In this document: piece by piece, positions 23,201 to 63,872 of the stretch
Numbering within the stretch: position 1 is the stretch's first letter
Layout: every line of letters starts with the position of its first letter
DNA from: Eledone cirrhosa
Lineage: Eukaryota
Direction: 5' to 3'
Assembly: GCA_964016885.1 (NCBI GenBank)
Contig: OZ024740.1
Coordinates: 291,400,001-291,464,000 of the forward strand
DNA: 64,000 bases
Notes under the pieces: model-generated
Told to the model about the DNA's origin: nothing
Databases searched by the model: none
What the model saw: the letters and a program-made list of their open reading frames with translations, nothing else
Position numbers and translations under genes: made by a program

Positions 23201-23771
23201 CTCTTAATGACAGTAATTGTTCCTCATATACATCATGTCAAAATATCTTCTGTTAATGACAGTAGTTGTTCCTGTACATCATGTCAAACTATCTTCTGTT
23301 AATGACATTAGTTGTTCCTGTACATCATGTCAAACTATCTTCTCTTAATGGCAGTAATTGTTCCTCATATACATCATGTCAAACTATCTTTTGTTAATGA
23401 CAGTAGTTGTTCTTGTACATCATGTCAAACTATCTTCTGTTAATGACATTAGTTGTTCCTGTACATCATGTCAAAATATCTTCTGTTAACGACAGTAGTT
23501 GTTCCTGTACATCATGTCAAACTAACTTCTCTTAATGACAGTAATTGTTCCTCATATACATAATGTCAAAATATCTTTTGTTAATGAATAGTTGTTCCTC
23601 ATATACCTCATGTCAAAATATCTTGTTAATGACTAATTGTTCCTGTACATCATGTCAAAATATCTTCTGTTAACGACAGTAGTTGTTCCTCATATACATC
23701 ATATCAAACTATTTTCTGTTAATGACAGTAGTTGTTCCTGTACATCATGTCAAAATATCTTGTTAATGACA

Positions 23772-23844
23772 GTTTGACATGATGTACAGGAACAATTACT
23801 GTCATTAACAAGATATTTTGACATGATGTACAGGAACAATTACT
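23772..23844 (-). repeat. Inverted satellite segment (~1.5 units)
   Basis: TTTGACATGATGTACAGGAACAATTACTGTCATTAACAAG is the reverse complement of the unit. Confidence 0.95.
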
Positions 23845-29822: not shown

Positions 29823-30083
29823 ACATCATGTCAAAATATCTTTTGTTAATGACTAGTTGTTCCTCATATACCTCATGTCAAAATATCTTGTTAATGACAG
29901 TAATTGTTCCTGTACATCATGTCAAACTATCTTCTGTTAATGACATTAGTTGTTGCTGTACATCATGTCAAAATATCTTCTGTTAACGACAGTAGTTGTT
30001 CCTCATAAACATCATATCAAACTATTTTCTGTTAATGACAGTAGTTGTTCCTGTACATCATGTCAAAATATCTTGTTAATGAC

Positions 30084-30253
30084 AGTTTGACATGATGTAC
30101 AGGAACAATTACTGTCATTAACAAGATATTTTGACATGATGTACAGGAACAACTACTGTCATTAACAGAAAATAGTTTGATATGATGTATATGAGGAACA
30201 ACTACTGTCGTTAACAGAAGATATTTTGACATGATGTACAGGAACAATTACTA
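30084..30253 (-). repeat. Inverted satellite segment (~3.5 units), fold-back of the preceding units
   Basis: Its reverse complement reproduces the private variants of 29959-30086 (TTAACGAC, CATATCAAACTATTTTCT, ATATCTTGTTAAT). Confidence 0.95.
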
Positions 30254-39200: not shown

Positions 39201-41444
39201 CTATCTTCTGTTAATGACAGTAGTTGTTCCTGTACATCATGTCAATCTATCTTCTGTTAATGACAGTAGTTGTTCCTTATATACATCATGTCAAAATATC
39301 TTCTGTTAATGACAGTAGTTGTTCCTGTACATCATGTCAAACTATCTGTTAATGACATTAGTTGTTCCTGTACATCATGTCAAACTATCTTCTGTTAATG
39401 ACAGTAGTTGTTCCTTTACATCATGTCAAAATATTTTCTGTTAATCACATAAATTGTTCCTGTACAACATGTCAAACTACCTTTTGTTAATGACAGTAGT
39501 TGTTCCTGTATATCATGTCAAACTATCTTCCGTTAATGACAGTAGTTGTTCCTGTACATCATGTCAAAATATCTTCTGTTAATGACAGTAGTTGTTCCTC
39601 ATATACATCATGTCAAACTATCTTCTGTTAATGACATAAATTGTTCCTGTACAACATGTCAAACTACCTTTTGTTAATGACAGTAGTTGTTCCTGTATAT
39701 CATGTCAAACTATCTTCCGTTAATGACAGTAGTTGTTCCTGTACATCATGTCAAAATATCTTCTGTTAATGACAGTAGTTGTTCCTCATATACATCATGT
39801 CAAACTATCTTCTGTTAATGACAGTAGTTGTTACTGTACATCATGTCAATCTATCTTCTGTTGATGACAGTAGTTGTTCCTGTACATCATGTCAAACTAT
39901 CTTCTGTTAATGACAGTAGTTGTTCCTGTACATCATGTCAAAATATCTTATGTTGATGACAGTAGTTGTTCCTCATATACATCATGTCAAAATATCTTCT
40001 GTTAATGACAGTAGTTGTTCCTCATATACATCATGTCAAACTATCTTCTGTTAATGACAGTAGTTGTTACTGTACATCATGTCAATCTATCTTCTGTTGA
40101 TGACAGTAGTTGTTCCTGTACATCATGTCAAACTATCTTCTGTTAATGACAGTAGTTGTTCCTGTACATCATGTCAAACTATCTTCTGTTAATGACAGTA
40201 GTTGTTCCTGTACATAATGTCAAACTATCTTCTGTTAATGACAGTAGTTGTTCCTGTACATCATGTCAAACTATCTTCTGTTAATGACAGTAGTTGTTCC
40301 TGTACATAATGTCAAACTATCTTCTGTTAATGACAGTAGTTGTTCCTGTACATCATGTCAAACTATCTTCTGTTAATGACAGTAGTTGTTCCTGTACATA
40401 ATGTCAAACTATCTTCTGTTAATGACAGTAGTTGTTCCTGTACATCATGTCAAAATATCTTCTGTTGATGACAGTAGTTGTTCCTCATATACATCATGTC
40501 AAAATATCTTTTGTTAATGACAGTAGTTGTTCCTATACATCATGTCAAACTATCGTCTGTTAATGACATTAGTTGTTCCTGTACATCATGTCAAACTATC
40601 TTCTCTTAATGACAGTAGTTGTTCCTCATATACATCATGTCAAATTATCTTTTGTTAATGACAGTAATTGTTCCTGTACATCATGTCAAAATATCCTCTG
40701 TTGATGACAAGAGTGGTTCCTATACATCATGTCAAACTATCTCCTGTGAATGACAATAGTTGTTCCTGTACATCATGTCAAAATATCCTCTGTTGATGAC
40801 AAGAGTTGTTCCTATACATCATGTCAAAATATTTTCTGTTAATGACAGTAATTGTTCCTGTACATCATCTCAAACTATCTTCTGTTAAGACAGTAATTGT
40901 TCCTGTACATTATGTCAAACTATCTTCTGTTAACGATGGTAGTTGGTCTTGTGCATCATGTCAAACTATCTGTTAATGACATTAGTTGTTCCTGTACATC
41001 ATGTCAAAATATCTTCTGTTAATGACGGTAATTGTTCCTGTACATCATGTCAAACTATCTTCTGTTAATAACATTAGTTGTTCCTGTACACCTTGTCAAA
41101 CTATTTTCTGTTATTAACAGTAGTTGTTCCTGTACATCATGTCAAACTCTCTTCTGTTAATGACAGTAATTGTTCCTGTACATCATGTCAAACTATCTTC
41201 TGTTAATGACAGTAGTTGTTCCTGTACATCATGTCAAAATATCTTCTGTTAATGACAGTTGTTGTTCCTATACATCATGTCAAACTTTCTTATGTTAATG
41301 ACGGTAGTTGTTCCTCATATACATGTCGAAACAATCACTGCAGTTGTGAATGTTTAATATTTGAATTCCACAGTCAATGTTTGTATGTAATTTCTTGTTT
41401 TTTAGACAATGAAAACCACTCTATATATATATATATATATAAGT

Positions 41445-43560: not shown

Positions 43561-43805
43561 TGAGTGTGTGTGTACATTTAACGTCCACCTTCCACACTAG
43601 CATGGGTTAGTTGTCCCATTTGAGGCAGGTTGGGTCAGGTGACCATATCCTGCTCATACAGAACTAATTTTGGCTAGATTTCTGCAGCTGGATGCCCTTT
43701 GTAATGCCAACCACATTTACAGCATGTGCTCGGTGCTTTTTGCTGTGACTTCTATATGACCACTTTACAGTGTGGACTGGGTGCTTTTTGTCATTAGTGT
43801 ACGCA

Positions 43806-44317: not shown

Positions 44318-47047
44318 TAAAAAGTAATATAGCCATATATAAAAGATCTGGTTTGTGCTTTTAATTCAATGAAGACGCTAATGCTCAACATTAGTGTTTC
44401 AGGATTTTTTTTATTCATCATCAGTGACATTTATTTACTTTGTATTAGTCAAGAAATAGGTGAGGATGGATTAAACAATACTGGAGCACTACTGTCTGGC
44501 TTTCTCACATGGCTACTGAGACAGATATAACATGATCAGAGCTTAAAATACCCATAGCAAGACCTATGTATGTTTATAACACATAAACATATTGTAAAAG
44601 TCTTCATACACACCTCTATTATGAATCGCAATATATTAGTACTACTACTATTATAAAGACTAGTCAGTGAAGTACAGCCTGTGGTGATATGCTGTCCATT
44701 TTATGTACATTTTGGATTTATGTGGGGAAGTTGGGGATCCAGGCAGGACTACAGTGTTCCATGGTGGAGCTAATGTATTGTTACTGGGGTTTTTCTTTCT
44801 CTTGATAAAATGTCAAACTTGTGTTTGCTCTTTGTCATTTTTTCACTATCATTTAGCTTTTTTATTGTCTTCTCTGTTATGAATGTTGTGGGTTTGTTGT
44901 GTGTAACAGCTAGTATTTTTCTTAGTGTGTATGTGTGTAGTATTTTTATATTGTTGACTGATGGTTGTGTTTTATGTTGTTGGTAAGAAGGGAGATAGTG
45001 GATTTGGTAGAATGTTTTAAGGATTTAAACTATATTTGTAGTAGCTTAATGGATTAAACTATATATATGTTGAAGAGCCAAAAAAAATGTAGTGTTTCTT
45101 TGACACAATATTGGAGTGATTGTATTTTGGTGTTGTTGAAGGAGGTTAGGTTTTCATGTTCTTATTAAGATTGTTTTCAAAATTTCTGTTCACAGAAACA
45201 ATACAAGTTTGACATATGTTGTCTAGTTTACATATGGTTGATGCCTGTGTGCAGAACGTTAAGCGGGTAATGTATAGGATTGGTGTTATAAGAGTGGCAG
45301 TGAATCAGTGGTTTATTTACAGAAAAAAAAAAAGTGGAAGATATAAAGTGAACTCTGAAGGACACCAGAGTTGGTAGAATGCCAGATAGAGAACTCTCTA
45401 AGTGAATCATTAGCTTTAGTTGTATATGGACATATCTAGCAGAATAAGGCCATCTGGGAATAACAATGGCCAAGACCTTTGTGGGAACATCAATCAGGTG
45501 TAATGTTACAGTCCACAGCATCACCATCCTGTGGAAGAATTAGATGGGAGGTGAGAGCATAGTATCATCTGTATTGGAGTATCTGACAGCAAGTAGGTCA
45601 TTAATCCTTTCGTTACTGCATTTCTAATGAAATACACTCTATTAGAATTAGTTAATGAAGAATTTGGAGGGGTTTATTAAAATTATGTTGAAAGATTTTA
45701 ATTTAAATAGAAACCTTTAAAATGGGTGCTTTTGTGTCAGAATGAGAGCCAGTTTTGGGCAGGTTGGTATCAAAAGAGAGAATGTGAGGTATCACTTACT
45801 GATCCTTGGGTACACCAAGAATCAGAGTTGATAGAATGAGGGTTGGTGTGTGCTCCATCAGCACACATTTCAATGATCTAATAGGAATCTGCTAAATTCC
45901 AGAAGTGTGTGACTGGTGTAGACTGCACTTCCAGCTATGGTGTAGATTGCACTTCCAGCTAGCAGTCTGCAATAGTCACTGGTGTAGATTGCAATAATCA
46001 TTGGTAAAGGCTTTGATAATCTCAAGTGTAACAACATTGGTTTAGCCAAAATTCTCAAAAGTGAGAGATCATTGAGTGATAATAGGAGAACCAGTCTCCA
46101 GTAGATCTGGCTTGGTGGCAGCCATACTAATAATCAATAAAAAAGAATAGAGATTGAAGGAGATGGTTGTTGACACTGTTGATATTACCTTTGAGGTGTT
46201 GGAAGTACATGCTCTAGGTTGTTACTTGGTCAAGGTTAGAGAGGGTAACTTTGGCTGTGGAGGAACATGCTCTAGGTTGGTACTTGGTCAAGGTTAGAGA
46301 TGGTGGCTTTTTTTTTTTTGTTTTTAGTTGGGTAGATTGAAAAGTTTGGTGGACATAGAAACTAGCTCAGAGATTGATAGAAATGGCGCTATCAGGATCA
46401 GTCACCTTGTGTTCGAGTGGTCTGAATGCATCTTCAAGCTCCGTTTTTCCTTTTTCCTATATAATATGTACTTGATACTAATAATAAGAAATATAACTAA
46501 CTAATACAGTTAATCCTTTAAATATTTGTAAACAATTTCTGACATAATTTAATACTCAACATTTTAGATAGTATGTTTATTGTAAAACTACTAATGACGA
46601 GATAACATTCATAAGAATGTAACTAAAACTTGTTCACTGTTTGTAAAATGGTATTTTATCTCTTAGCATCCTGTTCCACATAAGACCACATTTGCAAAAT
46701 ATTCTTGAAATTACAAAACAACTCTATGACTGCATCATATAAAAAATTAAAGTCTCTACAGCTCTATGCCTGCATCATAAGAAAAATTAAAGTCTTTACT
46801 TAGCTGCAAATTTTCACAACACTGTTCTGTCCATTAGTAAAGATACTATAAACGTTTGAATTAACAAAGCAGTTTTTAAATATTGTTTGTTAAATCATTA
46901 CAGGATGTTGAGTTAAGAAAATTCTTAGTACATTTTATGTGTTCTGAGTGAAATTTTCTTAGTAGATTAATGACAAGAAAAAGAAATGTCTATGAAATTA
47001 ATTTAGTGATATTTGTTTAATTGTATTTTTGTTTTGTTCTATTTCAG

Positions 47048-48216
47048 GATGTAATTGTGATGCATTGCACTATGGGAAAAGATGAGTATGTTAAATCAAA
47101 AGGTGGAATCCTCAAAGCAAGTGCATTAGAACAGACAGACAATCAAGTACCTATTGGAGGTAAAATAGATGTGGCCTGGGACAATTATGGTCCAAACAAT
47201 AGCTTTAAAGAAACTACAAAAAATACTTTTAATAACAGTATAGGGCAAGTATCAAATGAATTTCACAAGAGTAATAGTCAAAGTAAAGAGTTTGCAACTG
47301 GATCTAATCGATGCAAGAAAAGAACTCCTTCCCAAAACTCTATGAAGTCATTATCAGATATATTATTAGAGAATAATGATTGTCACCATAACAAATCAAA
47401 TGGTCCATTGGTTACAGATTCCATTGATGTTAGTCCTCTTGATAACAACTCTGATAATGAAGATTTAGGGCTGACAACACATCGGCCTGATATCAATGCT
47501 AACCAAAATATTAATTTTGTAAATCCGCCATCTAATTTTTCGAATACAATCACCAATCTGTTTAACCAAAGTCATAGCAAAAAGAAAGACAACACAAGTA
47601 AAAATCATGGAGATGAAAGCTGGAGAAATAACAGGAAAATTGTTGGCAAAGGAAAGAATGATAACTTTTACAATCAGTCTCCATCCTCAATAACATCTAA
47701 TAATTACATAATGCATGATCAAGAGAACCTTGGTTACCAGCAACAACAACAGCAACAACAACAACATAACTATGAGCAGTATGTTATCCCCCAAAACTTT
47801 GCCTATACAGCAGATGATATTTACCGAAATGCGCTATCTGTTGGATCCTATCCTAATCTAATGACTCATAAGAAAGTCCCTGAGATGTTTAGTTTTGTGA
47901 ATGCATTGGTGTCGCCACCTTTCTTTGCACGTTCATATCACCCAGAACAGAGGCAGCAATCACATACATCATCCCAGTTTTACTCTGCTATCCAGTCTGA
48001 TAGAAATGGTTGTCTTAAGATACCACAGCAATCTCCCAGACATTGCTATCATTCAAACTCTATTCATCAGACCCATGATTACATGAATTCTTTCTATGTT
48101 GACAATTCTCAACATTTAGACAGCAGACTTCATTGTACAAATGTAGACTACCCTGATCAACATTACCAGTTGCATCAAAATGTTAATGTCTCAACAACTC
48201 GCTCTCTTGAAACTTG
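47048..48216 (+). CDS. F-box/LRR gene exon A (N/S/Q-rich, polyQ at 47738-47764); first in-frame ATG at 47060
   Basis: Acceptor TTTCAG|GAT, donor TG|GTGAGT, long ORF in AT-rich DNA; phase 2 fits the next exon. Confidence 0.8.
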
Positions 48217-48640
48217 GTGAGTTCTTTTCTTTCAAGCAATTATTCTTTGTTTATCTCTACTTTTTACTGTTGCATTTTCTTCATTTTAAGTATGTTTTAT
48301 ATAAATTACTGTTCCCTATACAGTCTTTGATCTTATAACCTTCCTTGAAAACTATGTGACCTTCTAGAAATAGCAGCTAAGTTTCATTCAAACATAATTC
48401 CTACTGACTTAACTCATGACATTCTGTAATGATTTAGCTGAAAATATTTAAAAAATGGCCTTGGTAATTCATGTTTATGGTAACTTTACTAATGGATAGA
48501 TCATTATTGTGAAAATATTCAATAATTAAAGAGTTAAAATTTAAATGGGATTCAGTCATAGTGCTGTTTTCTTCTTTTCAAGACTGTCTTGCTAATGCAG
48601 TTTCATGTGGTACATGATGTTAATAGATAGTTAAGCACAC

Positions 48641-48978: not shown

Positions 48979-49530
48979 ATTGGATAATGGAATTGTATAT
49001 ATACCGAATCTGAAAAAAAATGGTCACAACTGTAATAGCTTTGATCCTAGATCTGCTCAATCAGTGCTGCCCTGGGGCTAAATAAATGCTATTCACCAAG
49101 TTACAAAATGATTTAATGACTAGATGGATCCAGCCCACTCTGTAAAGTGCTAGTGCTGGTGCTACAATAAAGAGCACACAGTTTTCCCTGTATGATGGTA
49201 GTGCTGTGTAAAGTAATAGTGCCAGTGACAATAGAATGTTTCTAGTATATGCTGCAAGATGCAAGATGGTTGGCATTATGAGGCGCATCCAAGCTAAAAA
49301 TGGAGTGTACAAGCAAGACAAAGTCAACTAACCAGTCTAGCCTCAGTATGTGACAGCCCGTCTAACCTAATACAATGGTGATGATGATGGTCAACACACT
49401 AGATCATGAATTCTGTTTCTTTTTAAATTAAGAGAAATTCATACTGGATTATTTTTTAGAAAAAAACTAGCTTCTATTCACCTCATTTTTAGTGTGTATA
49501 TTTATATTTAAAATATTTATATTCAAGTTC

Positions 49531-50505
49531 CATCCATCATCATCATTTTACACCCGCTCTTCTCTGCTTGCAAGGGTGGGACGGGTCTTATTCAGCACAG
49601 CATCTCTCCACTTGTCACGGTCCTTTGTGATCTCCACCATGAGCTTCAGTGATCTGAGGTCTGTTCTCACCACCTCTGCCCATGTTTTTTGGGGTCTACC
49701 TCTACCATGTCTTCCTTCAACTGGCATTTCCTGGCACTTCTTTACCCATCGGTCATCCTCCATGCGCATCACATGTCCATACCACCTCAGTCTCCTCTCC
49801 CGTACACTACATTCTATCCCTCTCAGACACAGTTTCTCTCTCAACACATTCATGCTGGGTTGTTCACGCACATTGACACTGCACATCCAATGGAGCATGC
49901 TTGCCTCATTTCTCTCCAGCCGTCGCATATCCTCTGCAGTTGCTGCCCATGTCTCACTACCATGCAGCATCACGCTCCTCACACAAGCATCATATAACCG
50001 GCCTTTCGTATGCAGGGAGAAACCCTTCTTCATCAGCAGAGGAAGCAGCTCCCTAAACTTCTTCCAACCTGTCCTTATTTTAGATACTATGGCCTCGGAA
50101 CACCCTCCTCCCATGCTAATCTGATCTCCTAGGTACCAGAAGCTATCCACCACTTCTATAGCACCCGCCTGCATTTGAAAAATGTGTTTATCAATGCGAC
50201 TTCTACTGTCTAATTTCCCTGTACATTTACTGCATACATATTTCTCCCTACCTGTTAGTTTGCCTGCTATCCCGCTACATCTCTTGTGTACCCAGGATCT
50301 GCATTGTGTGCATTTTATAGAATTTATGCTAGTTCCTTTTCTGCATATCGAACATGGCCATTTCTCTGACGGAATCAGAGTTTTGTCCTCTTTTCTACTC
50401 ATCAACACTTTTGTCTTAGCTAGGTTCACTCTCAGTCCTCTAGCTTCCAACTGCTGTTTCCATAGCCAGAATTTATTCACTAGCTCCTCTACTGATTCTG
50501 CTATA
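49531..50505 (-). mobile_element. 5'-truncated RTE LINE (PHD-bearing subfamily 2), intronic antisense
   Basis: ORF 49548-50480: GLRVNLAKTKVL, KWPCSICRK..CTQC.SWVHKRC..CSKC, FWYLG, RLRWYGHV; (GAT)n tail. Confidence 0.93.
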
Positions 50506-51146
50506 ATTTTATTCCAGAATGTTTACATTGTCCCAGGCTGGATTTGAACATGTAATCTTTATTTGTAAACAAAGAGCAATAATATTCATATTCATTTACC
50601 CTTTAGTTACCATAATTCTAAAAAAATACACAGCCTATGTGTATCAATTAGTTTTGAAAATTTGGAGAATTTAATGTTTTCATTAGTAAGCTGATGTTTG
50701 AAACATTACTTAATATTTTGAATAAAATTATGATAAGTTTTAATAGAAGTATGAATATTTTAAAATGAGCAGTTATCTGTCATAAAACCAGGGCAGTTTG
50801 AGGTGGATTGGTATCAAAAGGGTTAAGCAACAGTTTTATTGCATCATGATGATGATGAAGAAGTATTAGTGTGTTTGAGTGCTGCAGTGGTTTGGTGCTC
50901 TTTAACCAATAATTAAAATAAGAGTTTCAGTACTGCCAATACAGTTTTATCCTCATCCCTATATTTGATATTTATAGTTTCTAAAGCTGAAACAAGAGAG
51001 AAAATAGTTGGGTAAGGTGGGGGAGGGCATTGTTGAATTTATAAAAAAAAAAAGCAAAATTATTTTTTTAGTTTTCCATTAATTTCCTTTCTGTTAATGA
51101 ATTATCAACTGTTTTTATTGTATTTTATTTTTTGTTATCGTTACAG

Positions 51147-52406
51147 GCGAAACCAAACTGGTGAGGAATTTTGCAATGTAATTGAAAGAAACAAAAGTTG
51201 CTCCAACAGCAAACCAATATTTCGATCACGATCATTATCAGCTGTTGAACAATCTAACCTCTGTCTCGACCGGGGATCTCCTCCACATAAATCAAACTAC
51301 GACGCTGGCAAAGTAGAAAATAACTTGAAAAACTTTCATATTGGTCATGCTCCTTCAGACAGCCGTCACTTTCAGCAGCAGTGTAACCCACAGAGGAATA
51401 CGTTTAATTCTCTTATAACTCCTGAAAATGCAATGATACAACCAGTCATGCATGTTTGTCCTGAGTGCCATTCTGAAAATGCCATGCATGCCCAATATTG
51501 TACTTATTGTGGAGAATGTTTAACTGAAAGAGCTCAACCAGCTGTCTATCCTCAAGACAGTATACATACTAATTTTAGAGATGAAGAATTCTCTTATCCT
51601 TGTGATATTAATAATGATGATAATGTATTTAATGAAACTATTTCACATGCCAGTTCTTTCCCTAATAGCCATTTTCAGTCTTCCTATAACTATAGAACCA
51701 CTAAAGCAACCACTAGAAGGCAGTACCAAATTCAACAAGAGGCAAGCCACTCATTTTCTCCAGGAGAATACCGTGCTTTCCATTGTGGAGCCAACAAACC
51801 TGAATGTTACTCTGATACAGAGATTAGTCTAAAGTCACCATCAACACATAAAATGTTGTCCTCTTGTGACTGGGAAGATTCTTCTCAAGATAATTTAGCA
51901 ACTCCAATTTTTGCAATGGATGAAGAAATGTTGAACCCTGCTGATCAGAATATTTATTCAGTATCACAGTTGAATTTCAATGATTCTGTTCTTGATTGCG
52001 GGAGTTTTTCAGAAACAGACTTAGAGTTAATCGCAGCTCAACAACACCCACTGTCAGAAGAAAACTCTGATAAAACTTCAGGCAAATACATTGGAACAAA
52101 AGGATCAAGGAAAATATGGAAAAAACCCAATGCTCCCAGCAGTGGTAATGAGGGTAATAGTCCTGTGTATCATCGTCACTGGGAAAGATCTAGTTGTGGC
52201 TCTACTTTTTACCTAAAAGAGCCAAATTCTATGTATAACTTAAATTCACAAAAGACTAGAAATAAATCAAGCAATAGTGAGAAGTGTAAAGAAACTGAAA
52301 ACAAACTTCTACCTGGTAGTAATATTTCTAACTTTCCTCGTAAAGAACTGAAAAAGGTTGTACAACAGAATGGGGCTACAAAGAATCGGAAGAAAATTCA
52401 TTCCAA
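51147..52406 (+). CDS. F-box/LRR gene exon B (1260 nt), zinc ribbon CPECHSENAMHAQYCTYCGE at 51457-51516
   Basis: Acceptor TTACAG|G completes TG+G=Trp; donor AA|GTAAAA, phase 2. Confidence 0.85.
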
Positions 52407-52729
52407 GTAAAAAAAAAAATTCTTTTTTAAGTAATTTTTTTTTCATATTGAATAAAAACATTCCTGTATTATAGCATGATGTCTTTATGAAAAAATAATG
52501 TTGGTTATTTTATTATGAAAAAAGACCAGATTATTTTGGCTCTAAAAGACAAAAAATATATAAAGGATAAGTTATTAATTTAATCAACTTTTAATTACTA
52601 TATTATTACTATAAATTGTCTTGATTATAATCCCTTCTAAATATCACTGCACTTGTATAATAGTTTTTCTTCTATCACCTACATAAGTTAATAAATCTAA
52701 ATTTTATTGTAAATATTTTTAACCTACAG

Positions 52730-52902
52730 GAAAGCTACTAGAGTGTTATCTTTAATGAAGAATGGAAACCAAGATGTTACTTTGGAAACTGAGAAATGTC
52801 TGACAGGAGATGGGCCAATTGATGTTCCTTACTCAGAGCAGATATTACAAGAACCTTCAGCAAATGGTCGATTATCTTGTGTGCCAGATTTCACAAAAAC
52901 AG
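52730..52902 (+). CDS. F-box/LRR gene exon C
   Basis: CTACAG|G AAA GCT (AA+G=Lys); donor ACAG|GTAGAC, phase 1. Confidence 0.75.
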
Positions 52903-55491
52903 GTAGACATTTATTAATGTTTTTTACTGATAAAAATAATCTATAGAATATTTGAATATACAAGATTTCTAAACTTTTATAAATTTCTAATTGAGGGGAG
53001 AGATTATTCTAATTATGTTTGTTCTGGTAGTGATGATACAAACATGAAACTTTTCATTGCTAGCCGCCGTGTGTTTCTATTTCTTCTGTCTCTATACAGA
53101 CAGTAATAGGCAAGTAAAGATTTCTAAACTTTTATTTATTTCAATTTACCTCCCCCTCCTACTTTCATACACCTCCCAAGTTACTAACATCCCACCCTTC
53201 ATCTACACCTCCCCAATAGATCTACCTCTCCAATCTTCATGCACTTCCTCCACCGCAGTCCACACTGTAAAGTGGTCATGTAGGTGACACAAAAAAAGCA
53301 CCCAGTCCCCACTGTAAATCTGACATTAGGAAGAGCATGAAGCCATAGAAACCAAGCCAAAATCAGTCCTGTATGAGCTAGACATGGATATCTGACCTGG
53401 CTTGTCTCACAACGGGACAACTCGTCTAACCCATGTTAGCTTGGAAAGATGGACGTTAAATAGTGATGATGATGATCTTCTGATCACAAGTTGATTCTAG
53501 TAGTTATATGAACAAAAACTCTTTTCATTTATAGAAATCATGTGTTCATATTTCTTCTGTTTATACATAGATTAGAAATAATAAAACGAAAACAAAACTG
53601 AAATATGTTTGGAAATGTTTCTCTTGTAAGATGGAGACACCCTCTCAATAACTGGACAAAGAAGAAGAATTTTCACTGTCTTTTGCCAATACAAGAAACA
53701 TTATCTGCAGTCAAATTGCTGTTGCATTTTTTTTTTTATTAAAGCTCATCTTTCCTATATAATTATGTTCCCTTTTTTCTCCATTCTCTGTTCCTCCTCT
53801 ACAGACATATACCAGGAAGTATTATTGCTATTCTTTTAAAATCCTTTATTTACTATCACATTGCCCTAATTCCACTATATTTTAGATGGTGTAAAGAATT
53901 AATATGAAACACTTTCTGATCCATCTTCACTTTAACACTTTCCATACCAGTCATACTTATGGGTCTTAAGAAGCAACAGCACTCCTTTATGTAATTCTAA
54001 TTCTTCCTTGTTTTAGTAAAGTAAAATATATTTTAATAAATATTTGCAAAGATATTTTAAAATTACACCTTCAACTAATAATGGAGGTGCATGGCCTAGA
54101 GGTAAGGGTGTTGGACTTACAATCATAATGTCATAGGTTTGATTCCTGGGCTGGGTTGTGTATTGTGTTCTTGAGCAAAACATTTCATTTCATGTTGCTC
54201 CAGTATATTCAGCTGAAAATGAGTATCAGCAATAACTGGGGGTTTTACCCTGCGAGGGACTGGTGTCATGTCCAGGGGGCAGTCTTATACACTCAGTTGC
54301 TTCACACTATGAAACTGAGATAAGCACTGGCCTAACAAGCCTTAAATAGCTTAAGACAAACCTTTTACTCCTCACAAGCAATTCTATGGCATAAATTCTG
54401 TTCTGTCCACTGCTATAATCACCAATTCTAATCAAACATCAACATTTTACAAATAAAACCATTACTGTACTCTCACTTTACAACAACTTAATATGTACAC
54501 TTTAATTCATAACTACACTTACAACAACCTAATATATCCACTTTGATTTATAACTACACTTACACTAAAAAAACATAACTGCTTTCCCATAAATCACATT
54601 TATAAACTTGTTTTTCCTACTAGAAAAGAGGAAAATGTCAAGTGTTTTAGTTGTTTGACAAAACTATCTGTTAACTAAATTATATGTAGTACAGTGGCTG
54701 AGTATTCCTTAGACACTTATGTTTAAAGTAAACTTTATACAGATTCAGTATGATTGATACATTGTGTCACACTGGCCCATTGAATTACAGGTACTAAAGG
54801 CAATGATGATGATAATGATCTATCTGCTTGATTCCCACACAATATTCATCCAGCCAATTTTACCCACAAGGTTAGGAATGACCTGAGGCTATGATAAAAG
54901 ACACATGCCCAAGGTGCTATGAACTGGGGCTAAATCTAGACCGTCCTGATTACAAAGATATCTTCACAATTTACCTATGCTGATAAGGTGAATGTGCATG
55001 TGTGAACACTTGCACAAAATACTTGTTTCATATTTGTTGATGAACTTTTCTGTAGATGGTTAAGACAAATTTCTTGAAATGTTAACATAAATGAGATCTG
55101 AAAACTTCACACTGTCAGGTGTCTTTGGTGGAAACACATGAAAAAATGTTTACTACTCACACTCAATGAGAGGAAGAGATCTGGTAGCACTTAACTAAAT
55201 CAAGTGGAGAGAGGAAGAGATCTGGCAGCATTCAACAAAGTGAAGTGAAGTGGAGGGGTGGAGCAGTATTCATAAAGGCAAATGGTGATTGAAAAAGGTC
55301 CAGACTTCCACATTTAAGGGTTTATTTAATGTGTTGAAATTGGTACTAAAAGTATCACCTTAGTATGAGGGAAGATATTTTATCATTTTAAGGTTTAAGA
55401 AATATATATTCACTTTTAAATGTTTTCAAAGTAAATTTTGGTTATGTTTTCTACATATTTACCCTTTTAAAAATGTTTCATTAATTTGTAG

Positions 55492-55523
55492 ACTCGGAGA
55501 CTATTGGCTGTTCTGGATCTGAG
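55492..55523 (+). CDS. F-box/LRR gene exon D (32-nt micro-exon, DSETIGCSGSE)
   Basis: TTGTAG|AC...GAG|GTTAGT converts phase 1 to phase 0, as needed to join exons C and E. Confidence 0.7.
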
Positions 55524-57225
55524 GTTAGTTTTTAATAATTATTTTTATAGAAATGTTCATTCTTCATTATTATTTTGGTAGAGTTTGGAAACATAAGTAA
55601 ACAAGATGCAGGCATCCAATAAATCTGAGAAGTCTGTGGCTCTGCTTGAGTACTGACTTGGGCCGTGATAACCTGTCCAACTGTTGCTAGCAGGAAAAAC
55701 AGATGTTAAATGATGGTGATATCTCTAGATGTAAAAAGAAGTACAATAGTGGTCTACTAATGATATAGTCATGAGTCAAGTTATGTTTTGTTCCTGCTCA
55801 AAATAACTCTAATAAACCCAGTTTACAGATGATTGACAGGAGGAAAACATCAAGCTGTAAAGAAAAATACATAGGTCTCAATTATTTTGGGAAAACTGGC
55901 ACGTTGAAGTTGTCTAGACCCATGACCCATGTCAATCCTTACTCAGATAATTGATCAAAAGTATTCCAGTCATGATCATCTCATCTATTGTTTGTTTTTT
56001 TTTTTTTGTTTTTTTTTTTTGAAGCATCGAAATATTCCAACTCTCTGTACTCTGGAGTTCAAAATCTGCCAAAGTCACCTTTGCTTTTTTTTCCTTTCAA
56101 GGTTGATAAAAAAGTGCCAGTCCTGTATTGGAGTCAGTTCTTACTCTATATCTCTTTCATACATCCTCTCTAATACTCTCTCTCCTCTGGAAGAAATCAA
56201 CTGTGTCCAGTCCTGGAGAGGGATAGTCTCTGCCAGGTATAAAATGCCCAAGATATACCATATGTCATTACGGCCACCCCCTAGGACTCATCAAAAGTTA
56301 TGGGGCCATATAGACATGTGATTTAAGGGAAATTTGACAGGTATTTTAAGGTCAAGTGACCATTTAGTGGGTCCATCGTTGGCTCATACATAAAATCTTT
56401 TGGGGATGCCAGGGATTCTTAATGGTCCATTCTAATTTATACAGCTAAATAAAAATCCGATATTTTTATGGTCATTAAAATCATTAAATTTTCACCATAT
56501 TAGTAGTAATAAAAGCATTGTGGGGAGGGGACCTGAAAAAATAATAAGTTTGGGAGGCAATTATTCAAGACCTGAGAGTACCTGTGTGTGTGTGTGTGTA
56601 TATATATAATAACACATTAAAGTTTAAGCAAAGAATCACTGCTTTCAGAGAGGGAGAGAGAGAGATTGTGGTACTGAGACCAGGGAGACCAGTAATCATG
56701 AGTATACAATGCATGGGAGATGCAAAGTGGGGATAAAGATATGTAAAATCTCAATTGTGGCTACACCCTTGAAAAGGCTTGCTGAACACACAAGCTGAAA
56801 ATGGTTGGTACCGCAGTTGGGAATTTACCTCTCTCTTTCTATTATAAATTCCTATTTTACTGTACTTTGGCCATATATATCTCCGTGGCTAAAAGAGTTA
56901 ATGTCAAGAAGGGCATCTGGCTTCAAAACATTGCCTCAAAATGTCCGTCCAACCCATGCTAACATGGAAAAGGTCAACCTAAAAATGGTAATTATCTCAC
57001 ATTCAAGGAAATTATTGATTACTAGATACTAAGTTGTGAAGTTGGTGCAGATAGGTTTCATACTGTTGCATAACTTAGAAATATTCAAGTCTACTTAATT
57101 ACATTGGATTAATGCCATCCTAAACCAATAACAGATGTTATATAATAAAACTGTTAATTATTTTAAAGATGTATTGTCTTCCAACTCTAACATTCTTTTA
57201 TTAATCCTCTATATATATAAAACAG

Positions 57226-57376
57226 AGAATACAATCACGGAGTTCAACCTACCCTTGGCAACATCTACCTGATGAAATTTGGTTGCAAATATTTTCCAAT
57301 CTTAGCAATCATGCCAGATTCCATTGTGCACTGGTATCAAAACGATTTAACCGTATTATTCAAGATGAATCTCTAT
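57226..57376 (+). CDS. F-box/LRR gene exon E: F-box domain (absent from the ORF track)
   Basis: RIQSRSSTYPWQHLPDEIWLQIFSNLSNHARFHCALVSKRFNRIIQDESL(W) fits the F-box consensus LP.EI...IF..L......  ..VS+R+.....D..LW. AACAG| acceptor, T|GTAAGT donor. Confidence 0.93.
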
Positions 57377-57829
57377 GTAAGTAAATGTTTCTTCTTTCCT
57401 TTTTTTTTTCGTTCATGAAATTTAACACTTTTGATTCCAAACCGCCTGAAACTGACTGGCCCTAGTTCTACGATGCAAAACTGTATCGTAGAACAGTTAT
57501 TTGTAATAATAATAATAATAATTGTTTCTACTTTAGACACAAGGCCAGCAATTACACAGTGCATTACTGGTACTTTATCGTAGAACAGTTATTTGTAATA
57601 ATAATAATTGTTTCTACTTTAGGCACAAGGCCAGTAATTTTGGAGGGAAGGGAAAGTCGATTAAATCGACCTCAGTGGATTACTGGTACTTTATTTTATC
57701 GACCCCATAAGGATGAAAGGCAAAGCTAACCTTGGTAGGATTTGAATACAGAACGTAAAAGGCAGTAACTCTATGCTGCAAAACATGCTGTCCAATGCTC
57801 TACTGATACTGCCAAACAACCACTCTCTA

Positions 57830-58130
57830 TAATAATAATAATAATAATGAAAGTTATTGTGTGCAGAGCTCAGGTGCACTATAATTCATCAAAGGTGCAT
57901 GTATAACACATAGAATAATGTACAAATGTCAGGAAAGTGAACAGTATATTAATCATGATATACACAGATACATGCGTATGTGTGTTTGGAGGGGGAATAT
58001 CAGATGTAAGTGTTGCTGAATTTCGGGAAGCATAGAGGTTTTGAATGATGCAGTGTCTCAACAGCTAACAACTGATGCAGGTAGTTTGTTCCATGCTTCA
58101 GCAACTCTGAACAGGAAAAAATGTTTCCAA
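57830..58130 (-). mobile_element. CR1-like LINE 3' end
   Basis: - strand reads KHFFLFRVAEAWNKLPASVVS...ASFK, then a 3' UTR like 7605-7822 and an (ATT)n tail. Confidence 0.8.
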
Positions 58131-58696
58131 CTTGGAAATGATGGAAAGCAAAGTTGGCTTTGGCAGGATTTGAGCTCAGTGAGCCAGAACAAATACCAAG
58201 GCATTTTTAATCTGATACCCTAACTATTCTGCGAATTTGCTGCCTTGAGTGAATATTTCATCATTATCAATTAACGTCTAGTTTTGCACACTTGACTGGT
58301 TGTCATATTATGAGACAAGTCGGGTCGAGTCACCCATGTCTTGTTCATACAGATCTGTGTATTTTGGTTTGGTTTCTACAGCTGGATATCTTTCCTAACG
58401 CTACACTTGCTTTAGTAATTTATGCAAATGTTTATATTTGCATAGCTATCCACCTAAATGAGTATGGAAAGGTTTTATGTATGTGTGTTGATGCAATCAA
58501 TGAAACAACATGCTCATGAAATTACTGTACAAGTGGCTAAGCATTCCTCAAACGCATGCACCTATAAAGTAAATCTGAAGGAGATTCAGCATGACACAGA
58601 TACAAATAATTTTTTCAAGCTAAGTGAAATAGTTTTATTCAAGGACACAATATACGTCCTCTAGAATCAAACTCGTGACCTTATGATTGTGAGTGA

Positions 58697-59128
58697 AACA
58701 CCCTAATCATTAAACCATGCCCCCTCATTGAAAACACCCAATCATTAAACCATGCCCCTCATTGAAAACACCCCAATCATTAAACCATGCCCCCTCATTG
58801 AAAATACCTCAATCATTAAACCATGCCCCCTCATTGAAAACACCCCAACCATTAAACCATGCCCCCTCATTGAAAACACCCCAACCATTAAACCATGCCC
58901 CCCTCATTGAAAACACCCCAACCATTAAACCATGCCCCCTCATTGAAAACACCCCAACTATTAAACCATGCCCCCTCATTGAAAACACCCCAACCATTAA
59001 ACCATGCCCCCTCATTGAAAAAACCCCAACCATTAAACCATGCACCTTCATTGAAAATACCACAACCATTAAACCATGCCCCCTCATTGAAAACACCCCA
59101 ACTATTAAACCATGCACCTTCATTGAAA
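58697..59128 (+). repeat. 36-bp minisatellite (AAAACACCCCAACCATTAAACCATGCCCCCTCATTG), about 12 copies
   Basis: Homogeneous tandem units starting at the 5' end of a - strand family B SINE. Confidence 0.95.
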
Positions 59129-59299
59129 AGGTTTGTAAAGAAATGTTTAATTGAAATAAAGTATCATCTTTTATCTCCTCTCAGTCATTCCCATAGGAAT
59201 TACATTTATAATTCAATATTGTCTCATCTTAGAGTTTTTACCTTATATAATAATTATAGAACAAAAGATTATTTTTATCAGGGTTTAAGATTTTGACAG

Positions 59300-59700
59300 C
59301 AAAGGAAGCAAGTTGATTGTACAAGGTGTACATATATTGAAGACCCTTCAAGACAACAACTTTGATCTGAAGGAAGAGTGATAAAGATCATGGAATAAGT
59401 CCAAATTTGCCAAGCAAGACCTCATCCAAGACCCCACATCCAAACCAGCCAGCTTTGACCTTCCGAGAAAGCAATAGGTGTCCCATCATCTCCATTGATG
59501 TAAAATGAAAGATAGTCCAGCATGTGATTGTGGTGTCTTTGACCAGACAATGCTGCATGTTGTTCCATGTTGCCCCGTTAGACGTTTTACCAGCAGCCTG
59601 AAAGCAATCCATAATACTACAAATGACGCCTTTGTTTGGCTCACCAATCTCGATCTGCCTCCCTAACTATTGTGCATATATCATACAAGAAGAAGAAGAA
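59300..59700 (+). mobile_element. Ingi/Vingi-like (I-group) LINE 3' fragment with (GAA)n tail
   Basis: IQDPTSKPASFDLPRKQ, KMKDSPACDCG..DQTMLHVVPCCP, WLTNLDL, then CATACAAGAAGAAGAAGAA. Confidence 0.65.
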
Positions 59701-59997
59701 GGGTTTGGGATTTTGTGCTAGTTTCATGTTTCTTTTATTTTTAATGTTCAAAGGGGGTGGTTGATTGACAGAATTGGTAGAGCTTCAGATAAAACACTGC
59801 GTTCAAATCTTGCCATGGTTAACCTTACCTTTCATCCTTCCAGGGTCAATAAAATAAAGTATCAGTCATGTACTGGGGTTGATTTAATCAACTCTGCCCT
59901 TCCCTCAAATTTGCTGACCATGTGCCTAAGTTATCAATATTGAAATATGTTAACAGTCTGTCAGTAATTGCAACACTTTACTGTTTTATCTTTTCAG

Positions 59998-60158
59998 GGC
60001 AACATATCACTTTAGAGAAGAAATGTCTGCAAGATGAATGGTTGTTAAGAATATCTCAACTTCATCCTTCTAGATTAGAGTTCATTCAGTGTCATGGTGA
60101 TAAAGTGACTACTGCTGGATTGAATTATCTATTTAAAGAATGTGCTAATTCCCTAATG
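59998..60158 (+). CDS. F-box/LRR gene exon F (first LRR region)
   Basis: TTTCAG|GG completes T+GG=Trp. WQHITLEKK...LEFIQCHGDKVTTAGLNYLFKECANSLM|GTATGT, phase 0. Confidence 0.9.
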
Positions 60159-61614
60159 GTATGTTTATTAAATTATCTATTTAAAGAACATACTGATTCC
60201 CTAATGGTATATTTAGTGATGTCCTTTACCTGAAATATGTGCTAATTACTAAACTTATTGTTATGTATATTGTTATTTATTGTCTTGTATTTTCTGAATA
60301 TTATATTAGGAGGACTCTTCAGCTAACCTCCCTAGTGTTAGTGATCTACACAATAAACACACCCATACACTAGTAAAGTGGTTATTGATAGGAAGGGCAT
60401 CCAGTCATAAAAAAATCTGCCAAAGAAATGGTCAAGAGGTCCCATCAGCTGTGTCAAAGATGACAACCTCTCTAGTGCTGGTATCACAATAAAATGCACG
60501 TGGTCATGTTCAGGATCATATATAATCAAGTTGTCGACTACAGGCCTGCCTGAGCTCTAAGTAGAGCATAGGAACATATATAAGCAAGATGCAGGCACCC
60601 AGCCCACCATAGGATCAGTATCTCTAAGTACCAACCCAGTCTGCAGACGACTTGTCCAACCCTTGCTAACAGAAAAAGCAGACATAATACAATAATGATG
60701 ATATCAGTAAAAAATTATGTCTTTGAATAGGCTATATTTAGTGTTAGACTACTCTTAACATTTAATTCAATGTCTATATCTCTGACTAGACTATATTTAG
60801 TGTTAGACTAGTTTTAACATTTAATGCAATGTCCATTAAAAAGAAAAAATTAAAAATGATTTTGAGTTGAAGAAAATGAAACAGTCAATATTCTAATTAT
60901 AGTTGAGTTTATACTTTGCTGGGGATATCTAATAAAACCAAAGCATGTCTGGACTTGTTTTCCCTTCTTGCCAGAATAATTAAAATATTAATATATTTTC
61001 TTTACTGTATAATTATTTTTAATTAGTATTTCTAATTTTCACTCTTTTAAATATATTAACAATAATTAAGTTAACTAATGGTTTCCTTGTTGATGGCATC
61101 TTTTAATAATTTATTCTCTAAAATACATTTAATTATTAGAGTTTTGAAAATTGATAGTGGCTTTTGCTTTTACTTCTTTCAATGAACTGTTGAGGGAGCC
61201 TTTTCACATTTGCTGAGTTTGCTAGAAATAGCAGTGAAATCTTTCAAATCATACCCTATTGCCTTAAAAATAAAAGGTAACATTTGATAATGTAGTTCTT
61301 GTTACACTGTGCATGAGAAAAAGACTGGATGGTCATGGCTGGAATAACTTTGATGATAGGTCCTCTTCAAGAGTTAGTCTAGAAGAGAAAAAAATACGAT
61401 GTCTTGGTAATTCTAGTTGTTTACTGCGATAGTTTTAGTCACCATCATCACCATCACGTGTATTTTCCATGCTTCCATAAGTTAGGTAAACTTATGTTAT
61501 GAGGCTAGACAAGTTAGGTGACAAATCTTGATCATATCTTCCATTTTTAGCTTGGTTTTCTATGGTTGGATGCCCTTCTTAACACCAACCACTTTACAGC
61601 ATCTACTGGGAGCT

Positions 61615-61875
61615 TTTTTATGACACCAGTGAAACCACCTTACTGGGTGGACTGGGTGTTTTTTGTTGTAGAACCAGTACACCCCTCCCATCTTCTTTAC
61701 AGAGTAGACTGGGTATTTTTTGTTGTGAGGAAAATGTACAACCACCTTACAGGGTAGATTGGGTATTTTTTATTGTGGCACCAGTACAACCACCTTACAG
61801 GGTGGACTGGGTGTTTTTTGTCGTGGAACCAGCACTACCACTACAGTGGTGACTGTATATTATTGTGTCACTAGT
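61615..61875 (-). repeat. ~42-55 bp degenerate tandem repeat of the RTE/SINE 3' UTR unit (CACCCAGTCCACCCTGTAAGGTGG)
   Basis: About 5 copies of CCACCTTACAGGGTGGACTGGGTGTTTTTTG inside a - strand non-autonomous element. Confidence 0.7.
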
Positions 61876-62249
61876 GCTATCTCACTACAACATTTAGATG
61901 ATAACTGACTGAAAAAATGTAGTGTTATATTTTGAATATTTCTTAGGGTTAAGTTAGTTCCATCTAACTAACATATCTTATTAAAACACCTCTCTCCCAG
62001 AACAGTGTCATAGAATACAACTATAGAACAGGCATAGTCAACAGGAAAATACAATAGATAGTTAAGTGAGGAAGTCAAGATGTGTCAGGGTGTGGCAGAG
62101 ATGTGCGTGTGTGTTTGCACCTAACACAGTAGATAGTTAAGTGAGGAAGTCAAGATGTATGTGTGTATGTGCACCTAATCACGAGCATTTTAGAGAGTAA
62201 TAATTATAATGTAACTTTCTTTTACTGTTGTTTTCAATTTAAATTGTAG

Positions 62250-62401
62250 AAGCTGTGTTTTAGCCGCTGTAGTCGAGGTGAATTAACTGGTGATAAAATT
62301 TTGCAGGCATCAACAGTGTGTCATAATTTAACTCATGTTGATGCTAGTTGGTGTTCAGTGACAGATTCTGGATTGTCTGCCATTGCAGATTCCTGTGATA
62401 G
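62250..62401 (+). CDS. F-box/LRR gene exon G (cysteine-containing LRRs)
   Basis: TGTAG|AAG; KLCFSRCSRGELTGDKILQASTVCHNLTHVDASWCSVTDSGLSAIADSCD; AG|GTAAAT, phase 2. Confidence 0.92.
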
Positions 62402-62516
62402 GTAAATATCAATCTTTCTCTCTCTCTTACATTCACTCACTCTCTCATTCACACACACACACACATATCTACCTACCTGCCTACCTTTTAAATATAAAAT
62501 TTATTTATGATTTCAG

Positions 62517-62597
62517 GTTGGAAAGTTTGTGTTTAAATGGTTGTGGGTTGATGTCAGACAATGGGTTGAAAATATTGGTATCAAAACATTGTAAAAG
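62517..62597 (+). CDS. F-box/LRR gene exon H (LRR); gene continues beyond the window
   Basis: TTTCAG|G; RLESLCLNGCGLMSDNGLKILVSKHCK; AG|GTAAGT, phase 2. Confidence 0.92.
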
Positions 62598-62790
62598 GTA
62601 AGTCTCAATTGATTATTTAAGCAGAAAATCATTTTGTTAAAGTAGAATATCATTTTGTTTTCTATAAGTCTTATCATATCTCAGTTAATTTTACTAATGA
62701 TAAAGATTAATCTTTTTGTGTGTGTGTATCTTGTTTTTATTTTTATTAAAATGTGGATTTGTAAATCCAATATAAATCATATACTCATAT

Positions 62791-63639
62791 ACAAAACTCT
62801 GATTCCGTCAGGGAAATGGCCATGTTCGATATGCAGAAAAGGAACTGGCATAAATTCTATAAAATGCACACAATGCAGATCCTGGGTACACAAGAGATGT
62901 AGCGGGATAGCAGGCAAACTAACAGGTAGGGAGAAATATGTGTGCAGTAGATGTACAGGGAAATTAGACAGTAGAAGTCGCATTGATAGACACATTTTTC
63001 AAATGCAGGAGGGCGCTATAGAAGTGGTGGATAGCTTCCGGTACCTAGGAGATCAGATTAGCATGGGAGGAGGGTGTTCCGAGGCCATAGTATCTAGAAT
63101 AAAGACGGGTTGGAAGAAGTTTAAGGAGCTGCTTCTTCTGTTAACGAAGAAGGGTTTCTCCCTGCGTACGAAAGGCCGGTTGTATGATGCCTGTGTGAGG
63201 AGCGCGATGCTGCATGGTAGTGAGACATGGGCAGCAACTGCAGAGGATATGCGACGGCTGGAGAGAAATGAGGCAAGCATGCTCCGTTGGATGTGCGTGA
63301 ACAACCCAGCATAAATGTGTTGAGAGAGAAACTGTGTCTGAGAGGGATAGAATGTAGTGTATGGAAGAGGAGACTGAGGTGGTATGGACATGTGATGCGC
63401 ATGGAGGATGACCGATGGGTGAAGAAGTGCCAGGAAATGCCAGGTGAAGGAAGACGTGGTAGAGGTAGACCACGAAAAACATGAGTGGAGGTGGTGAGAA
63501 CAGATCTCAGATCATTGAAGCTCACGGTGGAGATGATGAAGGACCGTGACAAGTGGAGAGATGCTGTGCTGAATAAGACCCGTCCCACCCTTGCAAGCAG
63601 GGAAAAGCAGATGTAAAATGATGATGATGATGATGATGA
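62791..63639 (+). mobile_element. 5'-truncated RTE LINE (PHD-bearing subfamily 2), intronic sense
   Basis: Nearly identical to the reverse complement of 49531-50385, with a 13-nt deletion near 63295 and a (GAT)n tail. Confidence 0.93.
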
Positions 63640-63689: not shown

Positions 63690-63872
63690 ATGAATTGGCA
63701 GTATCAGTACAGTGTCAGACACCTTGCTTTGCAGCATAGTTATGGCCCTTTGCATTCTGAGTTTAAATCCCACTGAGGTTAACTTTGCATTTCACCCTTA
63801 TAAGGTTGATAGAATAAAGCACGAGCAATGCACTGGGGGTAATTGCTGGCCGTGTGCCAAAAGTAGAAACAA
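63690..63872 (+). mobile_element. SINE family A copy
   Basis: TGAATTGGCAGTATCAGTA...TTCTGAGTTTAAATCCCACTGAGGTTAAC...GTGCCAAAAGTAGAAAC. Confidence 0.78.

Follow-up and report, generated by a model that had tools for sequence, protein, structure and literature searches.

Within the window analysed here, a stretch of 64,000 nucleotides from Eledone cirrhosa, we identified a zinc-ribbon/F-box/LRR gene that is expressed and is conserved in invertebrates, with two inverted copies of a LINE in its introns (Table 1). An earlier, sequence-only reading had proposed that this pair promotes back-splicing of exons B to H into a circular RNA. The gene model has 14 exons and gives a 1270-aa protein, in which a domain search agreed with the zinc ribbon, F-box and LRRs previously read from the sequence. 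All seven of exons B to H have AG/GT ends, and the six coding exons I to N, which carry LRRs, lie beyond the window and outside the proposed circle. A 1210-aa Argonauta protein (GAB1598789.1) matched the model product over its full length with 71% identity, and also agrees with the GT donor of exon H. This full-length match leaves no space for added coding exons between B and H, which the sequence-only reading had named as potentially breaking its frame.

Table 1. Coordinates of the host gene exons and of the inverted LINE copies, as positions in the window.
Feature	Position	Strand	Remarks
Exon A	47048..48216	+	start codon at 47060; not part of the proposed circle; tblastn against P0001/P0002
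LINE copy 1	49531..50506	-	intron A-B; 5'-truncated, ~975 nt, older; paired arm 49535-50386
Exon B	51147..52406	+	1260 nt, phase 2/2; zinc ribbon; acceptor is the proposed back-splice acceptor
Exon C	52730..52902	+	173 nt; tblastn
Exon D	55492..55523	+	32 nt; below tblastn length; agrees with frame and whole-protein alignment
Exon E	57226..57376	+	151 nt; F-box (PF12937, E 2e-13)
Exon F	59998..60158	+	161 nt; tblastn
Exon G	62250..62401	+	152 nt; LRR; tblastn
Exon H	62517..62597	+	81 nt, phase 2/2; donor is the proposed back-splice donor
LINE copy 2	62791..63638	+	intron H-I; 5'-truncated, ~850 nt, younger; short trinucleotide-repeat tail

A homologue search indicated conservation of the gene in animals ranging from cnidarians to amphioxus, with no close vertebrate orthologue among 57 matches. 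The uncharacterised FBXL-type invertebrate proteins XP_014769091 (O. bimaculoides) and GAB1598789.1 (Argonauta hians) share with the protein studied here a long, poorly conserved N-terminal part, a zinc ribbon, an F-box and an LRR array. The A-B splice junction is present in contigs from three of four sequencing runs, examined across exons A and B and the intron between them. A spliced contig from the species itself (3662 nt, with no letter differing from the locus) passes from A into B and continues for 1922 nt more; exons C to H comprise 750 nt, and the coding part of exons C to N 1396 nt. Its length matches an entire linear mRNA that does not turn back, which is weak evidence, as contigs drop rare forms.

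The two LINE copies are reverse-complementary, antisense ahead of exon B and sense past exon H, as the sequence-only reading had held. Their inverted match (49535-50386 against 63629-62791) contains 797 identical positions out of 852 (93.5%), with a single 13-nt gap and 42 substitutions outside it, so that the description of the copies as near-identical with few mismatches was right in substance and slightly generous in wording. Copy 1 was said to end approximately 640 nt ahead of the exon B acceptor (51147), which is true of its 5' edge at 50506, but its pairing part already stops at 50386, 760 nt ahead of that acceptor. The start of copy 2, placed at approximately 190 nt past the H donor (62597), was measured at 193 nt. 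On the pre-mRNA strand, the arms would give a very stable duplex, predicted to contain 797 Watson-Crick pairs, 23 G-U pairs and 19 mismatches (820 paired positions in 839 bp), with 15 A-C mismatches, a longest perfect run of 94 nt and an energy of -1627 kcal/mol. Across 164 kb around the gene, these copies form by far the best inverted pair, and there were no rival copies of more than 75% identity near them.

We assigned the family to the RTE-like LINEs on its frame layout and tail, in line with the earlier reading of the elements as RTE. A single frame encoding an APE endonuclease and then a reverse transcriptase, without a separate ORF1, is a criterion of the RTE clade. In a full-length relative (L074, an element of 3.25 kb), we identified a 945-aa open frame beginning at base 112, with Exo_endo_phos (33-194) and RVT_1 (563-765) domains, and trinucleotide tails were found on copy 1, copy 2 and relatives. 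A short 3' end with a microsatellite-like tail is described as an RTE-clade feature, though other clades have such tails (PMC6007223). The nearest solved structure was that of L1 ORF2 (E 8e-28), which by itself shows only that this is a non-LTR element. Likened by description, RTE-2_OV (Petrosino et al. 2022, PMC9115989) and the present family each have one long endonuclease and reverse transcriptase frame, a zinc-finger-like insert (which scores as PHD-like here), a microsatellite tail and many young 5'-truncated copies; the full-length element is approximately 3.25 kb here, and RTE-2_OV has a 3327-nt ORF with UTRs of approximately 600 nt.

The family is large, with at least 4657 copies by exact 27-mer matches at the 3' end, and 2638 exact matches to an internal 28-mer. 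Copies 1 and 2 are 95.0% identical (ungapped), compared with a mean of 98.2% among 16 other copies, seven of them chosen as the best matches to copy 2 and the others taken from blocks and from loci of close pairs. A tree of 22 rows places copy 1 outside the clade of copy 2 and these 16 young copies (96/96). As the two are less alike than unlinked copies and are not sisters in the tree, they likely inserted independently, at different times and by chance. Copy 1 departs from the family majority at 37 positions, among them 15 CpG-type changes (a decay of 4.4%), and copy 2 at 20 (2.4%); both values are exceeded by the divergence of exon B in contigs of two relatives, approximately 11% (107/1011 and 110/986). 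We infer that the insertion of copy 1 preceded that of copy 2, and that neither predates the divergence from the relatives whose contigs were compared. Copy 1 has a degenerate target-site duplication at best and copy 2 shows none, and the joints listed include no empty-site allele at the position of copy 1.

We investigated how unusual such a pair is in 11 blocks (1.14 Mb) of the same genome, counting sequence pairs in inverted orientation, no more than 15 kb apart, that match over 800 nt or more at 90% identity or higher. Five were identified, two of them from the family of copies 1 and 2, corresponding to about 0.28 expected per 64 kb; their gaps (1.0-5.1 kb) are shorter than the one here, and three come from a single block on C9, leaving 2 pairs in 1.04 Mb without it. 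Among the first 100 listed copies of the family, an opposite-strand neighbour within 15 kb was found for four with the 27-mer and for two with the 28-mer, which scales genome-wide to roughly 50-190 cases among exact-match copies alone. An inverted pair of such quality does not exceed chance. The position of both arms so near splice sites is an uncommon arrangement, which by hand arithmetic might be expected in approximately 2-20 genes per genome for this LINE family, placing the locus among the better circRNA candidates.

The frame of the proposed circle was computed as the sequence-only reading had given it: exons B to H sum to 2010 nt (670 codons) with no stop in frame, and the start of exon B and the end of exon H are both in phase 2. 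The circle contains 10 in-frame Met codons, and skipping B to H keeps the frame, as that reading also noted, giving a 600-aa product that has neither the zinc ribbon nor the F-box. A stop-free circle follows from matching exon phases, for which the odds in this gene are 36-50%; 28 of its 78 possible circles are stop-free, and six of the 12 that begin at exon B, so that the stop-free frame is no sign of selection. The exon phases are older than the insertions, and the stop-free frame is a by-product of these phases.

Among the contig matches listed, which cover exons A and B and come from libraries of unrecorded type, neither a joint nor a loose end occurs at 51147, and these data are compatible with a low-level or non-polyadenylated circle. 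Base changes over the LINE stretch, on which thousands of contigs from other copies also lie, were alike in X21 (17 A>G, 35 T>C) and X22 (17 and 30). A non-exhaustive literature search on cephalopod circRNAs, back-splicing and F-box proteins found no paper on the gene.

The pair is best read as a neutral, lineage-specific inverted repeat and likely ADAR substrate. Independent chance insertion probably placed two truncated copies of this young, abundant LINE in opposite directions in two introns, with their pairing likely edited by ADAR and a circle present in trace amounts at most. The arms would pair, across 12.4 kb of a 28-kb pre-mRNA, only if transcription reached intron H-I before intron A-B was spliced out. 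ADAR would then edit the duplex, with its 15 A-C mismatches, and weaken it, and in a minority of transcripts the H donor might be joined to the B acceptor, or exons B to H skipped. Any circular RNA would be at most a trace by-product of splicing. The locus remains a reasonable candidate for back-splicing.

A stronger role for the pair, doubtful but the best placed of the alternatives, is that it drives a readily measurable B-H circRNA together with the in-frame skipped mRNA, in a ratio tuned by ADAR and with a non-coding circle diverting linear output. The predicted 839-bp duplex, with 820 positions paired, the distances of its arms from the splice sites (760 and 193 nt) and the kept frame on skipping argue for this. 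Against it, the own-species contig is (weakly) informative in being unbroken at the B acceptor and of full mRNA length, and co-transcriptional splicing competes with a 12.4-kb loop that spans six introns. Reverse-complementary matches are reported to aid back-splicing as well as the skipping of exons in C. elegans (PMC8330042), in agreement with the general premise of the sequence-only reading that inverted intronic repeats favour back-splicing, and coleoid intronic repeats are reported to undergo editing (PMC9068888). The total-RNA survey of O. vulgaris points the other way, describing circRNAs as few and at low level, with only 296 high-quality circles, and expecting ADAR to repress them (PMC9699675). 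The known circRNAs flanked by young TEs, such as those at primate inverted Alu elements (Gruhl et al. 2021, PMC8516420; Cao 2021, PMC8330042), are described with long arms in both introns, as here, and the locus further resembles them in that its arms are near splice sites, young and probably species-specific, and its gene AT-rich and exon-rich. It differs from the inverted Alu cases in that its arms are LINE 3' fragments of approximately 850 nt rather than SINEs, and enclose a seven-exon block of 11.5 kb whose circle is predicted. CircRNAs near young species-specific TEs are described as mostly by-products (PMC8516420). The switch for RNA circularisation and editing, created by the TEs, that the earlier reading proposed has no support, given independent insertions, the commonness of pairs of such quality and the phase odds.

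Translation of the circle is very improbable. This reading holds that the B-H circle is made and undergoes rolling-circle translation into zinc ribbon/F-box/partial-LRR concatemers acting on SCF complexes, for which the 670 stop-free codons and 10 in-frame Met codons are suggestive. Infinite-ORF circles have been reported in mammals, e.g. circEGFR, and circEGFR, circTau 12-10 and circNFIB, like B-H, are divisible by three in length and without a stop in the parent frame; these are detected RNAs of 249-361 nt with natural or reporter evidence of translation, whereas the circle here, of 2010 nt, and its translation are only predicted (PMC11724312). Concatemers would require circle formation, cap-independent initiation and a stable product. 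The gene's start codon belongs to exon A, which the circle does not include; the circle would break off the LRR array at the end of exon H, leaving out six LRR exons; and the insertions appear lineage-specific in a gene conserved from cnidarians to amphioxus. The stop-free frame, shared with so many other circles of the gene, lends the translated concatemer of the sequence-only reading no support. Equally slim are the prospects of its fullest form, in which the two recent insertions give an ADAR-sensitive duplex, a translated B-H circle and a 600-aa LRR-only mRNA, and thereby an editing-tuned control of an SCF adaptor in one octopod lineage.

Finally, an origin of the pair by misassembly, by local inverted duplication or by gene conversion, rather than by two insertions, is highly unlikely and largely refuted: seven letters are common to copies 1 and 2 against the family majority, but five of these are ancestral states also present in most older copies, giving no sign of conversion or local duplication, the 5' ends differ, the flanks are unrelated, the match ends at the element edges, and a contig from a second own-species run crosses the tail junction of copy 1 (49291-49583) with 0 differences. 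We rejected local duplication and gene conversion on these letters, ends and flanks and on the tree position of copy 1.

Read as two chance insertions, the locus is one more candidate for a known mechanism, in which young inverted TE copies favour back-splicing and editing, here in a group of animals whose circRNAs have been surveyed and are scarce. An abundant, translated circle, to which nothing found here points, would be a rare natural case of rolling-circle translation in an invertebrate, with a datable origin. The locus has a modest value as a test case, as its arms are long and near splice sites and relatives probably lack them, and a species comparison there would show if the heavy ADAR activity of coleoids suppresses TE-driven circles.

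We identified an inverted pair of LINE fragments around exons B to H of a zinc ribbon/F-box/LRR gene, with copy 1 on the minus strand of intron A-B and copy 2 on the plus strand of intron H-I. In a comparison of the window with itself, 797 of 852 columns of the pair were identical, with one 13-nt gap; on the pre-mRNA strand the arms would join by 797 Watson-Crick and 23 G-U pairs, leaving 19 mismatches, 15 of which are A-C; the duplex energy is predicted at -1627 kcal/mol. Copy 1 has its edge 640 nt upstream of the exon B acceptor and its pairing arm stops at 760 nt, while copy 2 starts 193 nt downstream of the exon H donor. All seven exons have canonical splice ends, sum to 2010 nt and start and end in phase 2, and their circular frame contains no stop. 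Self-comparison, exon ends and phases thus agree with the sequence-only reading, which had described this pair and frame accurately. Weaker inverted pairs were also found in the gene, one (163 nt, 78%) flanking exon A, home of the start codon, and others (75-86%, 150-250 nt) flanking other exon groups.

Coordinates of repeats, inverted pairs and splice sites (window positions unless a locus is named)
Feature	Position	Remark
Inverted pair, copy 1/copy 2	49535-50386 / 62791-63629	
Copy 1 edge	50506	
Exon A acceptor	47048	
Exon B acceptor	51147	
Exon H donor	62597	
LINE protein with PHD-like finger	28390-29433, 49548-50522, 62796-63311	
LINE protein with PHD-like finger	L074:224-3061	full-length relative
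Older LINE relative	26347-29433	
46-nt satellite arrays	19065-19644, 20234-25851, 29822-41315	
Inverted satellite patch	~23765-23850	
GC-rich non-LTR element	921-3847	
Weak inverted pair	46758-46917 / 48408-48567	flanks exon A
Weak inverted pair	43576-43783 / 53251-53461	
Weak inverted pair	57670-57815 / 63695-63838	
Weak inverted pair	57596-57847 / 69724-69973	second arm in L009
Minisatellite	58696-59129	intron E-F
Tail-to-tail LINE pair	G000:C9:20003535-20011702	L069-L070
Tail-to-tail LINE pair	G000:C1:71852579-71861412	L081

Each copy is the 3' part of a non-LTR element. In the full-length relative L074 (3.25 kb), one long frame encodes endonuclease, reverse transcriptase and a PHD-like finger, and the tail consists of trinucleotides; this architecture fits the RTE label proposed earlier, a putative assignment. 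The tails and target-site duplications of RTE elements are described in PMC6007223, and RTE elements are reported to be active in two species of Octopus (PMC9115989). The cysteine finger is inserted just after the reverse-transcriptase core and is common to the young and one older LINE subfamily. We found 4657 exact genome matches to a 3'-end 27-mer and 2638 to an internal 28-mer of the young family, in a genome of 3.0 Gb, and full-length copies on different chromosomes were 99% alike; on this sequence evidence the family is large and young. An older, near-full-length relative in the window, 66-69% identical to young copies, splits the three arrays of a 46-nt satellite (~17 kb), which also contains a short inverted patch. 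A second, GC-rich non-LTR element encodes RVT_1 and zf-RVT in a 751-aa frame, overlapped by an upstream frame.

Copies 1 and 2 are 95.0% alike, gaps excluded. Their mean identities to 16 other copies, a set that leans to the best matches of copy 2, are 95.0% and 96.9%, and those 16 share 98.2% with one another. In a 22-row tree copy 2 forms a clade with the 16 young copies, with copy 1 outside (96/96), and five of the seven letters common to both copies against the majority match most older copies. The lower mutual identity, the tree and these letters therefore point to two independent insertions, copy 1 being the older; identities, tree and shared letters gave no sign of the pair being kept alike. 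Decay of 4.4% in copy 1 and 2.4% in copy 2 is below the ~11% divergence of exon B in contigs of two related organisms, from which we infer that both insertions postdate those splits.

Such pairs recur in the genome. We screened eleven blocks at round coordinates on nine contigs, 1.14 Mb in total, of which 0.35 Mb is tandem repeat. With gaps of up to 15 kb allowed, they contained five inverted pairs that reached 800 nt and 90% identity, and 11 at a looser cut-off (at least 500 nt, 88%). The rate is ~0.28 per 64-kb window (95% interval 1.6-11.7 per 1.14 Mb), with three of the five from a C9 block picked after family matches on that contig were known; excluding it leaves two in 1.04 Mb. Two of the five belong to the same LINE family, and all have gaps shorter than the 12.4 kb between copies 1 and 2. 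Among the first 100 matches listed per pattern, four (27-mer) and two (28-mer) had opposite-strand neighbours within 15 kb, scaling to ~190 and ~50 genome-wide; a short fragment was one arm in three of the first four. Those four all lay within 4 kb, against no same-strand neighbours within 15 kb, an excess over even spread, in small numbers. Some long copies of the family sit tail to tail, separated by only 1.7-3.1 kb and flanked by unrelated sequence, and the partners match at 98-99% over 2.9-3.25 kb; local insertion hotspots are perhaps the cause. With long young copies spaced at one per 160-490 kb, and with ten internal exons per gene and 20,000 genes assumed, we estimated by hand ~2-20 genes with such geometry from this family alone; thus the geometry is uncommon per gene and expected per genome. 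Having a splice site no more than 0.8 kb from each arm is a less common feature. Stop-free circles number 28 of 78 possible among exons B-M, and 6 of 12 beginning at B, so the open frame tells nothing beyond exon phase. The pair is probably explained by copies of an abundant, young LINE that inserted here by chance.

With neighbouring DNA included, the gene has 14 coding exons (A-N, six outside the window) encoding 1270 aa. These align end to end with the Argonauta protein (71% identity), so the set of coding exons from B to H is complete; the frame-breaking extra exons that the sequence-only reading had named as evidence against it are absent. Exon B had two protein matches among 1532 candidates, and compares at 80% with Octopus bimaculoides XP_014769091 and at 62% with a 1210-aa Argonauta hians protein, which places the host among the octopods. 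Pfam places a zinc ribbon in exon B, an F-box in exon E and LRRs downstream. The F-box/LRR part has close relatives, nearly all uncharacterised, in molluscs, echinoderms, a hemichordate, amphioxus and cnidarians (57 matches). Exon A carries an acceptor of its own, and contigs from relatives reach 116-186 nt further 5', so an upstream non-coding exon is likely. Two O. bimaculoides database models (P0001, P0003) end directly after the F-box exon without any LRR exon, one appearing to run into an intron; they are probably split annotation. Intron E-F holds a minisatellite (36-nt unit, 12 copies, 93% matches).

Contigs of four runs, from libraries of unrecorded type, were mapped over the stretch from exon A through exon B, which takes in the B acceptor and stops short of the H donor. 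The A-B splice was present in three of the four runs. An own-species contig (run X21, 3662 nt, no differing letters) covers the end of exon A and all of exon B, then 1922 nt more; a relative's contig extends 1914 nt beyond exon B. A circle would offer only 750 nt (C-H) before returning onto B; coding exons C-N supply 1396 nt, which with 526 nt of 3' UTR end at an A-rich stretch. The dominant form is therefore linear: the mRNA shows no break at the B acceptor. Among the rows listed, no joint or loose end fell at that acceptor, a further 326 joints and 2455 loose ends lying outside them. The contigs speak weakly against an abundant circle; they lose rare forms and do not address a rare one. Contigs of other LINE copies overlie the element, masking any editing signal.

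We consider neutral insertion of both copies the likeliest reading. The arms would pair only if intron A-B persists until intron H-I is transcribed; the duplex should then suit ADAR well, and its editing would tend to destabilise the pairing. A circle joining H to B, or a transcript skipping from A to I, would arise only as a minor by-product, if at all. CircRNAs accompany young, species-specific TEs mostly as splicing by-products (PMC8516420). In octopus, circRNA levels are low, with 296 circles kept, and most editing falls in introns or 3' UTRs (PMC9699675). Less likely is a reading in which a non-coding circle reaches measurable levels, an mRNA skipping B-H keeps the frame but loses the F-box, and ADAR tunes the outcome. 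In its favour, reverse-complementary matches promote back-splicing and exon skipping (PMC8330042) and repeats are the target of one coleoid editing class (PMC9068888); the linear contigs speak weakly against it. Rolling-circle translation of the circle is very improbable; infinite-ORF circles are known in mammals (PMC11724312), and the start codon lies outside B-H. An assembly artefact or local duplication is just as improbable, and duplication was rejected on the tree and shared letters.

The earlier proposal of a TE-created circRNA/editing switch, possibly encoding zinc ribbon-F-box-LRR concatemers, is partly supported: the gene, the RTE-like element and the pairing arms agree with it, and nothing in the analysis pointed to a circle, its editing or its translation. 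Among the literature matches listed on octopus and cephalopod circRNA, none concerned this gene. The locus would be a new candidate for an already known mechanism.
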